IMG/VR virus record: IMGVR_UViG_2690316076_000004
Strand: one strand, 5' to 3'
Origin: a virus
Lineage: Duplodnaviria > Heunggongvirae > Uroviricota > Caudoviricetes
DNA: 37,028 bases
The position numbers and the translations under genes were made by a program. Below are positions 6,833 through 10,579 of the stretch, piece by piece (position 1 is the first letter of the stretch; each line of letters starts with the position of its first letter). Under the pieces are notes generated by a model. It was given only the letters and a program-made list of their open reading frames with translations, was not told where the DNA came from and searched no databases.

Positions 6833-9800
6833 TTAAGAAACAGAAATACCAGTAGCGGCTTTCTTAGTTACCATTACCGTTAGATCGCTGATATATGCAC
6901 TTGGGTTATAGTTGTTAACGCCCTTACAGTAAACTTCAAAAGTCATTGTTACTGCCCCGTGTCCGGCTGGCATGTCAATAACTCCACTGTACATACAGCC
7001 AGAAGTTGCAGTGCGATCATATAGAACACCACCATTTTTCTTAACGATTAGTCGGCAAGTATCCCAATGATCGCTACTTTCGCCACGACGAACAGACCCG
7101 TTATGATGAATCGCTGGAATCACTATTTGGCGATCGAATGGATGATCATCTTCGACCCTTACAGTGATTGCACCATCAGGCCAGTTTGGTTGGCGATGTG
7201 GGAAACTCCTACCAACCACTTTCACGAAGTCACCACGCACCTGATTAGCATCAAGCATACCCAAAATGCGGCAACTTGAATTAATCGTTACGTTGTTCAT
7301 TTCGCCGGAATCAGCCACCAAATGACCACGAATATTAGCGTGTCTAAAATGACAAGTGCCATCTTTGCCGATATACCATCCATCGTTACCATTCCAGTTA
7401 TAAGACTGGATATAGTTACCAATTTTAGCATTATCGATAGAGCCATCAATGATATGACCTGTTCCGATCTGTGCGTGTTGGATGTGAGCGCCGTTAATCT
7501 GGGCTGTGCCGATCTTAGCCGTGGTGATACTAGCATCACTAATCTGGGCTGTGCCAATTGCAGCATTACGAATCATCGCATTATCAAGATAAACTTTGTT
7601 ATCTTCGATGCCAAACGGACAAACTTCTGATCCGTCTTGTGGAGCTACCGCGATTTTATCAGCCGTAAAGATGATTCTTGTCGGTTCTGCCGGATCATTG
7701 GTTGCGCTCATATGAATACCAGCCACGCGACCATCTGCATTAACTGCCAGATTATATTTGCTGTTAATGGTTCCCTTCAAAGCATCGATTTTTACATCTG
7801 CTTCCTGATTCACACCAGCAATCTTGCCATCCATTTCTACCCGAACTTGATCAATCTTACTTGCGCTTGCTGCCTCACTGGTAGCAATTGCTTGTTTCAG
7901 GGTAGTAGCGGATGCGCTAACTTCTTTGGTGATATCGCCTTTCAGTTCAGCTTTAACCTGATCAATCTTAGTTGCGCTGGCTTGCTCACTGGTAGCAATC
8001 AGACTCTTGAGAGTATCGGCTGAGGCTTGGACCGTCTGCCCTGTCTCGGTAGTAATCTGTTTATGCATTGCATCAATCTTAGCATCGGCATTAGCGCCAG
8101 CTTGAGCAATAGCATCCGCGATGGTTTCATCTAAGCGATCTTGTAAACCAATCAGGTCTTCCAGTGCTTCTTTGTCCTGATCGTCCCAGCTAATGGTAGA
8201 TTTCATTTGCATGAAATACGGTTCAGACCAAACAGCATCATCCATACCGAAAATATCATAGTGAGCACCACGGATATAATAATCACCGTCAGCCAAATCA
8301 AAGGAAGTATGACTAACGCTATTGGTAGTCACTGCCCTTGCATCGGAGAAAGTATTATCGGTTGCATACTGGATGATTGACCCTGCATAGTCATGTTCTA
8401 CGTCATCCGCCCAGCTAACAAACGCAGTATTAAAGCCACCACGCGCACTAAAACCTTTCATCGGCTTATGTTGTGGGTTGATAGCCACTAAACGCGCTGG
8501 GGCGCTCTCTGAGTTGTTATAGCCCTTGACTGATACTTCTACCGTCAATTCACGGGAAAGGCCGTTAAACTGGTTCATATCAAGCGTATAAGTCCATGAT
8601 TCAGGATCGCGGGTACGGTACTGAATAGACTTACCAGCCTTGTTAGTTACCTTGATAATGTATGCTTCAAACAGGTCACTAAACTTGTTAGCTTCACCGT
8701 TGATCATCACATCTAATTGTTGCTGATTTTCCCATTCGATAATCAGATCATTGCCTTCGAAAGTACCAGGGGAGCTACCCTGATTTTTGATTCGAATAAC
8801 CGGAGTCGGCAATTCATAGGTAACAGTAGGATTCTGGTTAACCAGTTCCACCCATTCGGAACGAGCAATAATACCGAAAGCACAAACGCGGTAATCGTAG
8901 GAGCGATCTTTTGCCAGTGCATTGATATTGAAAATTTGCTGTGAAGTCTGTCCCAGCTTAATCCAGTTAGGTGATCCACTCACACGATAATCAATCTGGA
9001 AACCGTAGCGGTTGAAATCTTCCGGTGCATCCCATGTCAAAGTTACGTTTTTACCGTGGATGGTTTCACCAGTTGCCTTAATTCTGAAATTAGTAGGCTT
9101 CTGTACTGTCATTGAATCCGGTAAACCACTTGGTCGGTTATCTGGGTTAGCCGCATAGTTTAGGTCAGTATAAACCTGAGAATTATATTCTGTAGCGGTG
9201 ATAGTCATCATCCCAGCAATACCAGAATCAATAGAGCGATCAATTGCAGTAATACGCCAAAGTGAATTATTCAGTTTTAATTCATCATAGGTTACGCTGA
9301 TAACGTCCCATACTTCGGCGGTGAATGCGTCAGTAGTCATAAAGCTGATAACCTGAGTGATACGAGATTTATTTCGTTCTACACTCGCAAGTTTATCAAT
9401 CTGGGCTTTAGACTTAACAAAACGATATTCAATATCTTTAGCGATAATTCGACCATCTTGACGAATAGTAGCATCGTTTTCAGCATCAGCCGGATAACGT
9501 AGCATTTGCTCTGAATAGTCGATTGATGGTTCTTGATACATCGCGTTAATGGTATTGAAATAACCGTTAGTGCCACCTGTTTTCAGTGATACTTTTCCCA
9601 TCATGATATTGTCTTCATTGAAGGTATGCTTAACAATATCAGGAGCATCCAGTTTCAGCGTAATACGTCCAAAGGATTCGAACATCACCCCGCCGAAAGT
9701 CTGCATAAGGCTAGTTAAGTTCTCTTTAAAGCTGGCGTTCGGATCACATGCACCGTTGGAATGTAAATCCATCTGGCGTACTTGTTTACGCACTTTCAGG

Positions 9801-10579
9801 AATGAATCAACGTTAATATTTTCAATCGGTACACTAAGACCATACTTTGTATTTGTCAGATAATGGAAAATCTGGTCCACGCCGTTAGTGCTAGCCTCAA
9901 TAGCATTGGTTTCAAGGTTACGAATCTTTAAGCCCATAACATCGACCGCTACCTGGCTATTAGGCTGGAGAATATCAACACCAGCAGCCAAAGATTTGTC
10001 ATCACGACGTAAAACAATACACATGGTCGCAATGCCGTTACCCTGATACCGATCATCCCAATCAGCGCCCAAATGATGTTTAGCTAAATCCAATGCAGTG
10101 TTAGGATTTTTACCCGTGCGAAACTCGACTTCTAAAACTTTGCGGTATTCGTCTTTAATGTTTCCTTTATCGAGAATGCCATCACGAATTGTCATATTCT
10201 GGCTAATGAGAACGTTTTTATTATCGATGTGCAGTGCTTTAAAGTGATCGATCTCACCTTCGGCAATAGCAAAAATTTGTACCAGCTTGTTATTTTCACG
10301 CTGTGAAATTGCCTTGTAAACGCAGATTGCACCCGTGCGGGTAGTACCAAAAAGAACGGGTAATACTGTTTTCGGATCGTTTGATGTTCCTAGTGTCACC
10401 GCATTATCTGGGCTTTGTACTTTCGGTGTTTTTGGTGCGCCTACAGTGGAAGCGATCAAGGTCATTGCACCAGCAGCCATCCCGATAGCGACTGCGGTCA
10501 TAACAGAAAACGTTGCAGCAGCAGCCATCCCAGCAGACGCACCAGCAATAACCGCGCCTACTAATATTTCAAATCCCAT
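6833..10579 (-). CDS. tail tip / host specificity protein, lambda J-like
   Basis: C-terminal region (DDHPFDRQIV..., VIDMPAGHG..., VMVTKK...GISV) matches remembered lambda J C-terminal receptor-binding region; 1248 aa; last tail gene; ATGA overlap with K-like gene. Confidence 0.85.
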   Translation of the reverse strand: MGFEILVGAVIAGASAGMAAAATFSVMTAVAIGMAAGAMTLIASTVGAPKTPKVQSPDNAVTLGTSNDPKTVLPVLFGTTRTGAICVYKAISQRENNKLVQIFAIAEGEIDHFKALHIDNKNVLISQNMTIRDGILDKGNIKDEYRKVLEVEFRTGKNPNTALDLAKHHLGADWDDRYQGNGIATMCIVLRRDDKSLAAGVDILQPNSQVAVDVMGLKIRNLETNAIEASTNGVDQIFHYLTNTKYGLSVPIENINVDSFLKVRKQVRQMDLHSNGACDPNASFKENLTSLMQTFGGVMFESFGRITLKLDAPDIVKHTFNEDNIMMGKVSLKTGGTNGYFNTINAMYQEPSIDYSEQMLRYPADAENDATIRQDGRIIAKDIEYRFVKSKAQIDKLASVERNKSRITQVISFMTTDAFTAEVWDVISVTYDELKLNNSLWRITAIDRSIDSGIAGMMTITATEYNSQVYTDLNYAANPDNRPSGLPDSMTVQKPTNFRIKATGETIHGKNVTLTWDAPEDFNRYGFQIDYRVSGSPNWIKLGQTSQQIFNINALAKDRSYDYRVCAFGIIARSEWVELVNQNPTVTYELPTPVIRIKNQGSSPGTFEGNDLIIEWENQQQLDVMINGEANKFSDLFEAYIIKVTNKAGKSIQYRTRDPESWTYTLDMNQFNGLSRELTVEVSVKGYNNSESAPARLVAINPQHKPMKGFSARGGFNTAFVSWADDVEHDYAGSIIQYATDNTFSDARAVTTNSVSHTSFDLADGDYYIRGAHYDIFGMDDAVWSEPYFMQMKSTISWDDQDKEALEDLIGLQDRLDETIADAIAQAGANADAKIDAMHKQITTETGQTVQASADTLKSLIATSEQASATKIDQVKAELKGDITKEVSASATTLKQAIATSEAASASKIDQVRVEMDGKIAGVNQEADVKIDALKGTINSKYNLAVNADGRVAGIHMSATNDPAEPTRIIFTADKIAVAPQDGSEVCPFGIEDNKVYLDNAMIRNAAIGTAQISDASITTAKIGTAQINGAHIQHAQIGTGHIIDGSIDNAKIGNYIQSYNWNGNDGWYIGKDGTCHFRHANIRGHLVADSGEMNNVTINSSCRILGMLDANQVRGDFVKVVGRSFPHRQPNWPDGAITVRVEDDHPFDRQIVIPAIHHNGSVRRGESSDHWDTCRLIVKKNGGVLYDRTATSGCMYSGVIDMPAGHGAVTMTFEVYCKGVNNYNPSAYISDLTVMVTKKAATGISVS

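Follow-up and report, generated by a model that had tools for sequence, protein, structure and literature searches.

Does a C-terminus that closely resembles that of lambda gpJ reveal which receptor a phage tail tip recognizes? The question is raised by the gene of a J-like tip protein in a stretch of viral DNA of 37,028 nucleotides (IMG/VR record IMGVR_UViG_2690316076_000004), the whole of which is called the window here. The favoured reading, to which a probability of about 85% is given, is that the gene belongs to a temperate siphovirus residing as a prophage in Escherichia coli and encodes its central tail-tip protein, in which a gpI half, hub, FN3 domains, shaft, beta-prism and lambda-type receptor-binding domain (RBD) are combined and the C-terminus is exchangeable; porin as its receptor class is a guess.

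The prophage and its tail genes

The following genes of the tail module are needed for the argument:

6833..10579, minus strand: whole tail-tip/central-fibre gene, J-like (ORF list and translation; 1248 aa plus stop)
10579..11013, minus strand: DUF6950 protein of 144 aa in the "K position", upstream neighbour of the tip gene (Pfam DUF6950, E=5.7e-12)
11890..12597, minus strand: L-like hub protein (DUF2163 / Phage_phiJL001_Gp84_N), partner of the tip protein (Pfam, PHROG; RefSeq annotation in ES2)
12543..13103, minus strand: distal tail protein (DTP; PHROG 1302, E=2.6e-16)
13154..15586, minus strand: tape measure protein (TMP; PHROG 13674, E=3.8e-63)

The window represents a prophage in the E. 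coli chromosome that interrupts ycdX, with csg/mdo genes and the truncated ycdX at its borders; it is integrated by a large serine recombinase. The prophage was present in 55-62 of 5426 complete genomes (~1%) and in none of the plasmids. Full-length relatives of the tip protein, 93-99% identical to it, occur in E. coli chromosomes in dozens of genomes. The Enterobacterial host that had been predicted is thus confirmed by relatives with 94-99% identity in chromosomes of E. coli. Megablast of the tip gene against 50,697 phage records gave no match; the phage is represented only by prophages in bacterial genomes. Its gene set includes terminase, portal, capsid, tail, lysis and recombinase genes on a backbone that is not lambdoid, as well as a gp37-like fibre of 1137 aa, which could dominate host range. 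The tip gene itself is of an ordinary, already-annotated kind and a member of a known family: it is annotated at the same coordinates in strain ES2, and its RefSeq relatives are labelled "phage tail tip protein". Tandem Repeats Finder detected no DNA repeats within it.

The tip gene comes last in the series TMP, DTP, L-like protein, K-position protein (DUF6950) and tip protein. The stop codon of the DUF6950 gene overlaps the start codon of the tip gene (TAATG), which bears out the earlier remark that no separate I gene lies between the K-like gene and J. The same series without an I gene is common to Vibrio, Providencia and Roseobacter phages; the gene order as such was seen in five related phages. 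Pfam revealed no JAB domain in the DUF6950 protein; lambda K carries JAB and NlpC/P60 domains plus a faint DUF6950 match. The DUF6950 and L-like proteins found nothing significant in the PDB, so that the label "K-like" rests on position and on the faint match in lambda K. A lambda-like tail module, with separate M, L, K (JAB and NlpC/P60), I and J genes, was not found: there is no I gene, the DUF6950 protein is devoid of JAB, and the L-like protein belongs to DUF2163. A homing endonuclease is located inside the tail-tip operon.

Architecture of the tip protein

From N- to C-terminus, one polypeptide is predicted to contain a gpI-type segment, a hub, FN3-like domains, an alpha-helical shaft, a beta-prism fibre and an Ig-like RBD (all on the minus strand; TAPI-C, C-terminal domain of tail assembly protein I; RcGTA, Rhodobacter gene transfer agent):

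10439..10579, minus strand: residues 1-47, a pair of hydrophobic helices rich in Ala/Gly that correspond to H1/H2 of gpI and, in the RcGTA megatron, to the iris/penetration helices (hydropathy; profile and phmmer alignment to gpI 104-155)
10289..10438, minus strand: residues 48-97, plug/linker (APKTPKVQSPDN) followed by the beta-strand motif VLPVLFGTTRTGA, counterpart of gpI 156-215 (TAPI-C; BLASTP, hhalign)
9125..10288, minus strand: residues 98-485, baseplate-hub domains of the gpJ / T5 pb3 / megatron type, with approximate boundaries (family profile against the PDB, hhalign)
8195..9124, minus strand: residues 486-795, region of FN3-like repeats, long enough for about three domains, one weakly detected (Pfam fn3; position as in lambda gpJ / T5 pb3)
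7760..8194, minus strand: residues 796-940, alpha-helical shaft containing an internal duplication of 37 aa (family alignment; PDB matches)
7226..7759, minus strand: residues 941-1118, beta-prism of the central straight fibre (PF09327 Phage_Tail_Tip), continued by the RBD (Pfam, PDB matches)
6836..7225, minus strand: residues 1119-1248, Ig-like RBD (PF12421) with predicted variable loops L1 1125-1135, L2 1162-1173, L3 1192-1194 and L4 1220-1232 (Pfam, AF2, Foldseek, per-loop conservation)
6876..7205, minus strand: exchangeable RBD cassette, ~330 bp (sliding identity against ETEC1703, segment identities, megablast)

The N-terminus had been described as hydrophobic and Ala/Gly-rich, which is correct: alanine or glycine occupies 21 of the first 47 residues, and Kyte-Doolittle values above 1.6 are reached nowhere else in the protein. 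The further suggestion of a fused I-like domain was right for one half of gpI. The non-hydrophobic residues 48-97 are 35% identical to gpI (composition-corrected BLASTP, E=2e-6), hhalign aligned the N-terminus to gpI with a probability of 81% (E=1.2e-5), and gpI ranked top when residues 1-130 were compared with the PDB using phmmer. The family profile matched gpI 104-221 with E=0.0044, PDB-wide matches to gpI being modest (E=0.0044 to 0.03) and partly of low complexity. With the same profile, residues 48-97 also matched T5 pb3 265-315, and the motif VLPVLFGTTRTGA is kept in DCP80, PSTCR4, CRP-406 and Vibrio phages. Residues 1-~100 thus correspond to the C-terminal half of gpI (helices, plug and beta-strands; gpI 101-223, aligned over ~104-221). 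The ubiquitin-like half is absent: residues 1-130 gave no match to PF06805 (Lambda_tail_I) even at E<=10, while lambda gpI scores 1e-28. The H1/H2 helices of gpI have been described (PMC11101478), residues 1-46 of the megatron form a pore-lining iris/penetration helix (PMC7296036), and TAPI-TAPJ fusions in prophages were noted earlier (Iyer et al. 2006, PMC1779556). Here, a J-type protein has the C-terminal half of gpI built into its own N-terminus, which fits the view that the module for plugging and membrane insertion is part of the tip protein proper.

The hub core is homologous to those of gpJ, pb3 and the megatron. Using the family profile against the PDB, T5 pb3 was found with E=4e-28, followed by 9l9p_S (1e-21), lambda J (1e-10) and 8vjh_A (2e-6); hhalign to lambda J 249-486 gave a probability of 97%, and Pfam Phage-tail_3 matched residues 285-447 weakly. 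An fn3 match at residues 506-575 stayed under the Pfam cut-off (E=0.001), that of the Salmonella homologue P0101 being stronger (494-576, E=3e-5); FN3 placement in lambda gpJ and T5 pb3 has been reported (PMC11101478, PMC10038345). The 37-aa duplication in the shaft is single-copy in some relatives, as judged from the family alignment, and tail-tip fibres in the PDB were matched from residue ~831 onward. PF09327 was found by Pfam at residues 931-1092 (E=4e-17), and PDB matches of the beta-prism were 9l9p_S, the F2-pyocin fibre and lambda gpJ.

By homology with lambda and T5, three copies of the protein would close the tail tube. The gpI-type segment would supply its hydrophobic helix pair, the plug/linker and a beta-strand threaded into the hub. 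Docking of the trimeric RBD on an outer-membrane protein would, by the same analogy, twist the fibre, open the hub and release the plug. The N-terminal hydrophobic helices would then enter the outer membrane.

The receptor-binding domain and its candidate receptors

That this is a J-like tip protein with a lambda-J-type C-terminal RBD, as stated in the original prediction, was borne out by Pfam, phmmer, BLASTP and Foldseek. PF12421 (Ig_GpJ_C) follows the PF09327 fibre and covers residues 1132-1248, up to the last residue (Pfam, E=1.6e-34, 119.3 bits with a cut-off of 26.2). Alignment with lambda J, which had been named as the check, gave 41% identity over 180 aa (BLASTP, E=2e-34), far beyond chance. 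In a phmmer search of the PDB, A8 gpJ was the best match (E=3.6e-44) and lambda gpJ chains had E=2.6e-34 to ~1e-33. All three lambda J motifs cited in the original prediction are present: DDHPFDRQIV (1144-1153) is identical to lambda J 1026-1035, VIDMPAGHGAV (1200-1210) is the counterpart of lambda IVDMPAGRGNV (1083-1093), and VMVTKKAATGISVS (1235-1248) that of VMVIKKQALGISVV (1119-1132). The lambda-like stretch spans ~180 residues (1068-1248), not the ~130 first given. An AF2 model of residues 1061-1248 (mean pLDDT 83.8, RBD >90) has the Ig-like beta-sandwich fold seen in the experimental structures of the lambda and A8 gpJ fibres; its top four Foldseek matches were 8xck, 9wca, 9wcb and 8xcj (E=1.4e-18 to 3.6e-17), the next having E=1.5e-4. 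Two of these structures are complexes, 9wcb of A8 gpJ with OmpC and 8xcj of lambda gpJ with LamB; the A8 identity of 9wca/9wcb was taken from PMC11338833 and the PDB title, a literature search for the codes 9WCA/9WCB having retrieved no paper. The three motifs map to beta-strands, to conserved loops that alternate with variable ones, and to the C-terminal tail; they are scaffold.

The last ~110 codons form a cassette, exchanged by recombination while its flanks are conserved. In comparison with E. coli prophages that are otherwise 98-100% identical, the cassette is the sole divergent stretch (40-80% nt identity). Among 120 homologues, segment identities are 95-100% for residues 1-1127 and drop in the RBD to 60%, 78-83% or 50%; megablast matches in E. 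coli genomes end at query nt 364. Salmonella homologues have an unrelated C-terminus, of the kind found in Klebsiella T1-like (Drexlerviridae-type) gpJ. On this comparison of sequences, the prophage lineage swaps a ~330-bp RBD cassette among at least five types, carried on near-identical backbones with conserved flanks. No closer full-length donor emerged when the 121-aa RBD was compared with a database of 5.8 billion proteins, which returned short fragments only. The confinement of this turnover to the RBD of full-length orthologues points to ongoing selection for host recognition.

The original prediction went on to derive a maltoporin-like receptor from the lambda-like C-terminus, and this is not supported. 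Mutational hot spots in lambda J (around 1012, 1048-49, 1077-78 and 1107) define receptor lineages (PMC6646904), and specificity in the gpJ RBD fold flips with 1-4 mutations (PMC11336670, PMC6646904); in Phi21 J, a single mutation causes the switch from LamB to OmpC (PMC11336670). The lambda specificity loops are not conserved in the window RBD: 9 of 39 residues (23%) in the four predicted contact loops are identical to lambda's, compared with 51% elsewhere. Indels occur at 1012, 1077-78 and beside 1107, three of the four published hot spots, with lambda S1012 deleted, Q1078 facing a gap and D1107 replaced by N next to an indel.

The RBD is closer to 1A2 (56% identity over 174 aa) and A8 (45%) than to lambda (41-42%). 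The A8 and 1A2 RBDs bind OmpC (Brödel et al. 2024, PMC11338833). The 1A2 C-terminus was rebuilt from three frames of an OCR-damaged, frameshifted supplement sequence and is 99.4% identical to the natural proteins P0153 and P0155. Gifsy-1 J, also an OmpC binder, was dropped as a comparator, its C-terminus being a different domain with 18% identity to that of lambda.

A trimeric porin is the best guess at the class of receptor because the fold docks on LamB, OmpC and evolved OmpF. In a rough division of the probabilities, OmpF or another outer-membrane protein receives about one half, OmpC about a third and LamB a small share. Binding to OmpF or to a non-porin, neither of them linked in nature to the fold so far, is tentative, at best an even chance. 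In a neighbour-joining tree of 25 RBD types, with deep nodes lacking resolution, the window RBD falls outside the lambda, A8 and 1A2 clades and forms a clade of its own (89% bootstrap). A covarying pair, Cys1195/Cys1218, at the bases of L3 and L4 is unique to this type, and a search of 1.84 billion representatives yielded no RBD more than 58% identical outside the prophage family. The known receptors of the fold, however, are all trimeric porins, to which the threefold geometry of the RBD is suited (PMC11101478). That the clade recognizes an outer-membrane protein not yet known to be bound by the gpJ Ig-like fold is rather doubtful; if true, the at least five cassettes on near-isogenic backbones would form a natural allelic series in which loop changes can be related to re-targeting.

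Binding to OmpC, as by the natural prophage RBDs A8 and 1A2, is possible with chances somewhat short of even. The lean in this direction comes from pairwise identity, highest to 1A2 among all characterized RBDs and best to A8 in the PDB, and from loop L4, in which 7-8 of 13 residues are identical to A8/1A2 and 3 of 13 to lambda. The 74 variants of the highly polymorphic OmpC in E. coli would also fit many RBD alleles (PMC11338833). Loops L1-L3, however, differ from A8/1A2 as much as from lambda, the window RBD is in a separate clade, and 45-56% identity is far beyond the limits within which this fold keeps its specificity.

Binding to LamB in the manner of lambda is unlikely: Pfam family and fold are shared with the LamB-binding lambda RBD, E. 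coli has LamB and the length of L2 equals that of lambda, but the loops diverge at the hot spots, overall identity is only 41-42%, specificity in this fold flips with few mutations, and the nearest characterized RBDs are OmpC binders. Less probable still is that the gene is a relic of a defective prophage with no role left in infection, as its chromosomal location, the homing endonuclease in the operon and an IS1 insertion in the gene of one relative (H56) might suggest, given that the ORF of 1248 codons is unbroken, with start and stop coupled, all the gene functions listed above are there, and full-length orthologues persist with turnover confined to the RBD.

A clear lambda-J-like C-terminus thus tells the fold and not the receptor, the same fold binding LamB or OmpC.

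Comparison with known systems

The locus, read as an E. coli prophage tip gene with an exchangeable C-terminus, is a clean natural case of RBD cassette exchange on a non-lambdoid backbone, and its RBD alleles offer a set from which gpJ chimeras could be engineered, as was done with A8 and 1A2 by fusion at lambda residue 964 (PMC11338833). None of these results alters current understanding.

The hub has its best PDB match in T5 pb3, better than lambda J. In T5, unlike in the window, the L-like hub is fused to pb3, the hydrophobic helices reside in the tape measure protein, and separate pb4 and pb5 proteins serve as fibre and for receptor binding (PMC10038345). RcGTA g12-g15 share with the window the four-gene order DTP, hub, small K-position protein and large tip protein. 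The RcGTA megatron (g15) likewise begins with a pore-lining helix (PMC7296036) but is without a lambda-type RBD.

The C-terminal half of lambda gpI resembles the tip N-terminus in its Gly/Ala-rich hydrophobic helices, PK-rich plug/linker and VLPVLYG-type strand. While gpI is a separate protein, the segment in the window is covalently part of J, in a protein without Lambda_tail_I and next to a K-position protein without JAB peptidase. Lambda gpJ (PDB 8iyk, 8xcj, 8xck) has the same overall order of hub, FN3, helical shaft, beta-prism and Ig-like RBD; its hub is only remotely related, with homology at profile level (E~1e-10). Its last ~180 residues are 41% identical and the RBD folds are alike, whereas the specificity loops are 23% identical. 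The closest characterized relatives are the A8 and 1A2 gpJ C-termini, natural E. coli prophage alleles of the same RBD family. They differ from the window in their lambda-type J backbones and in belonging to other clades; their binding of OmpC has been demonstrated (9wcb), whereas OmpC is one candidate receptor for the window RBD.

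Tip gene and prophage context

The gene for the J-like tip protein is an ordinary structural one, of a kind that is known, and is already present in the RefSeq annotation. Its mosaic architecture is clear, while the allele of its receptor-binding domain (RBD) is uncharacterised. The features referred to below are the following.

1648-3342, plus strand: large serine recombinase at the prophage end (also L003 12840-16195), adjoining the interrupted ycdX in E. coli ES2
5574-6727, minus strand: region directly downstream of the tip gene
6833-10579, minus strand: tip gene, a single ORF of 1248 codons (ORF list, translation)
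11045-11815, minus strand: homing endonuclease of 256 aa with three NUMOD3 motifs (PHROG 'homing endonuclease')
16360-16830 and 21317-22150, both minus strand: two genes matching the major-tail-protein family phrog_158, flanking the fibre gene
16884-17790, minus strand: three tandem paralogous ORFs of ~100 aa each, with the motif W..G.FDIPNGW in common
17830-21243, minus strand: fibre protein of 1137 aa, between the head and tail genes

Counterparts of the tip protein with 94-99 % identity, annotated as 'phage tail tip protein', occur in E. coli. Of 5426 complete E. coli genomes, 55 carry the gene itself, in every case on the chromosome, and 62 genomes match the window over its first 25 kb. 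In strain ES2 the element adjoins the csg (curli operon) and mdo genes and interrupts ycdX. The window also carries genes for terminase, portal, capsid, major tail, tape measure (TMP), distal tail, L-like hub and M15 endolysin, and has the appearance of a complete prophage of a temperate siphovirus. The Enterobacterial host of the original prediction is therefore correct.

Several neighbouring genes deserve mention. The homing endonuclease gene sits between the L-like hub and DUF6950 genes; it is absent from this site in ES2 and present in strain ETEC1703. The 1137-aa fibre combines a T4 gp34-type trimerisation domain, a gp37-like distal part and a C-terminal Peptidase_S74 intramolecular chaperone, and is a candidate second host-recognition protein. 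Between its gene and a major tail gene lie the ~100-aa tandem ORFs, for which no Pfam match was obtained, nor a PHROGs match for the one ORF scanned. Just after the tip gene lie a gene for a 92-aa protein, an 80-aa ORF and a gene for a very basic 227-aa protein with a weak 'minor tail protein' match; the products of the first two look hydrophobic by eye. Next come an ORF of 115 aa and the M15 endolysin gene. These genes directly downstream may form a lysis cassette or encode accessory proteins.

Exchange of the receptor-binding cassette

Similarity to lambda gpJ spans the last ~180 residues of the tip protein. Pfam places a tail-tip fibre domain (PF09327) at residues 931-1092 and Ig_GpJ_C (PF12421) at 1132-1248 (E=1.6e-34). 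BLASTP alignment with lambda J gave 41 % identity over 180 aa (E=2e-34), and with phmmer the lambda gpJ chains among PDB sequences matched at ~1e-33 and 'A8 gpJ 713' at 3.6e-44. The predicted lambda-J-like C-terminus is thus confirmed, and the three motifs noted for it were located at residues 1144-1153, 1200-1210 and 1235-1248.

Among 120 homologues, residues 1-1127 maintain 95-100 % identity; in the last 121 residues it is lower, at 60 % in the commonest type (1258 aa) and at 78-83 % or 50 % in others. In a nucleotide comparison with ETEC1703, both flanks, downstream genes included, are 98-100 % identical and the last 14 codons of the tip gene 95 %; only nt ~6876-7205 fall, to 40-80 %. The genes downstream are kept at 97-100 % nucleotide identity even where the RBD has been exchanged. 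A recombination breakpoint has been reported inside the lambda 'specificity region' (PMC6646904), and the 5' breakpoint of the exchanged tract, at residue ~1125-1128 (lambda ~1005-1009), agrees with it. Salmonella enterica homologues (P0100-P0120) have the same backbone, with 73 % identity overall, and in place of the C-terminal ~180 aa they carry an unrelated domain whose identity to the gpJ ends of Klebsiella T1-like phages is ~31 %. RBDs of unrelated families are therefore accepted by this backbone. Length varies in the alpha-helical shaft too, which carries a 37-aa duplication (LKSLIATSEQASATKIDQVKAEL... / LKQAIATSEAASASKIDQVRVEM...) at residues ~855-928 (window ~7800-8020, minus strand). 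This unit is single-copy in several relatives, which accounts for the length classes of 1211/1221 versus 1248/1258 aa.

RBD loops and receptor class

An AF2 model of residues 1061-1248, made from a 23-row alignment, had a mean pLDDT of 83.8 (>90 in the RBD) and predicts a beta-sandwich. Its top Foldseek matches, all at E ~1e-18, were the closed lambda fibre (8xck), closed A8 (9wca), 'A8 gpJ 713 with OmpC G17 from E. coli EDL933' (9wcb) and lambda gpJ with LamB (8xcj); the next match was at 1.5e-4. In the model, conserved loops (EDDHPFD, NG and PAGHGA) alternate with variable ones, L1 (residues 1125-1135), L2 (1162-1173), L3 (1192-1194) and L4 (1220-1232). L1-L4 coincide with the indel hot spots of lambda J, at residues 1012, 1048-49, 1077-78 and 1107. 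Natural J lineages are defined by these hot spots, among which are both residues critical for acquiring OmpF use (PMC6646904). Each of the three motifs noted for the C-terminus falls within strands, conserved loops or the tail at the C-terminal end.

Identity of the window RBD in loops and elsewhere
Compared with; loops (39 positions); elsewhere (91 positions)
lambda; 23 %; 51 %
1A2; 36 %; 65 %

A8 and 1A2 are natural E. coli prophage gpJ C-termini that were grafted at lambda gpJ residue 964, and both use OmpC, not LamB (PMC11338833). The 1A2 C-terminus was rebuilt from the published supplement and is 99.4 % identical to the natural proteins P0153 and P0155. Identity of the tip protein is 56 % with 1A2 (174 aa), 45 % with A8 and 41 % with lambda. 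When 25 RBD types were placed in an NJ tree, the RBDs of the prophage family formed their own clade (89 % bootstrap), separate from those of lambda, A8 and 1A2. Among 1.84 billion representatives, an exhaustive search detected this domain in only 110 clusters; outside the family, identity never exceeded 58 %. Because the J protein of Phi21, with 94 % nucleotide identity to lambda J, acquires OmpC use by one mutation (PMC11336670), receptor identity is not transferable at 41-56 % identity. The specific prediction of LamB, or a maltoporin, as receptor is unsupported: loop identity to lambda is 23 %, lambda S1012 and Q1078 fall in gaps, D1107 is replaced by Asn, and the nearest characterised RBDs use OmpC. 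A trimeric porin would be the best guess for the receptor class, with OmpC slightly favoured over LamB.

C1195 and C1218 (window 6920-7003, minus strand) occur together in 27 of 165 RBD sequences and singly in none (0/165). In the model they occupy mirror positions of the betaF/betaG hairpin (1195+1218 = 1203+1210), making them a candidate cross-strand disulfide that would staple the bases of L3 and L4. Since the pair is limited to two related RBD types, it may reflect a single evolutionary event.

Backbone and gpI-like N-terminus

No megablast match to the tip gene was obtained among 50,697 phage records. By tblastn, the best phage relative was Escherichia phage DCP80 (L002, PQ671644), with 38.7 % identity over residues 29-1119, without the RBD, followed by Vibrio, Providencia and Roseobacter phages at ~22 %. 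These relatives have the gene order TMP - distal tail protein - L-like hub - DUF6950 - large tip protein in common, and all are without an I gene. DCP80 is classified as Straboviridae/Gaprivervirus and has motA and ndd, together with a siphovirus-type TMP - tip-protein module related to that of the window; the assembly may be chimeric or the record misclassified. A profile built from residues 1-520 of six diverse family members, searched against PDB sequences, matched T5 pb3 (E=4e-28), 9l9p_S (E=1e-21), lambda J residues 249-502 (E=1e-10) and lambda gpI residues 104-221 (E=0.0044); hhalign gave a probability of 97 % for lambda J. T5 pb3 is known to correspond to the hub plus megatron of the Rhodobacter gene transfer agent, RcGTA (PMC10038345), and RcGTA g12-g15 show the same four-gene layout as the window (PMC7296036). 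These comparisons indicate that the backbone is not lambdoid.

The N-terminus is hydrophobic and Ala/Gly-rich, as had been noted (21 of the first 47 residues are Ala or Gly). The end of the upstream DUF6950 gene overlaps the start of the tip gene (TAATG), so no I gene lies between the K-position gene and the tip gene, again as noted. Lambda gpI consists of an unresolved N-terminal domain, hydrophobic helices H1/H2 (from 101), a plug (159-175) and beta-strands, the last of which run through gaps of the gpJ hub; it has been proposed that, after opening, H1/H2 enter the outer membrane (PMC11101478). The proposed fusion of an I-like domain is supported for the C-terminal half of gpI: residues 48-107 of the tip protein are 35 % identical to gpI 156-223 (E=2e-6), gpI is the top PDB match for residues 1-130, and a six-member N-terminal profile aligned to gpI with hhalign (probability 81 %, E=1.2e-5). 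Hydrophobic helices, a PK-rich linker and VLPV(L/Y)(F/Y)G..R.G follow one another throughout the family. Support for the fusion does not extend to the ubiquitin-like half, as the Pfam Lambda_tail_I model, which covers that half only (gpI 14-97), had no match in the tip protein. Lambda K has a JAB domain, whereas none was found in the K-position DUF6950 protein. The absence of both domains is consistent with the proposal that the JAB peptidase of K cuts the ubiquitin-like domain off gpI (Iyer et al. 2006; PMC1779556).

The combination of a gpI half and J in one protein has precedent. Fusions of gpI and gpJ (TAPI-TAPJ) in some prophages were noted by Iyer et al. 2006 (PMC1779556), and just as the RcGTA megatron starts with an 'iris/penetration' helix (PMC7296036), the tip protein starts with hydrophobic helices.
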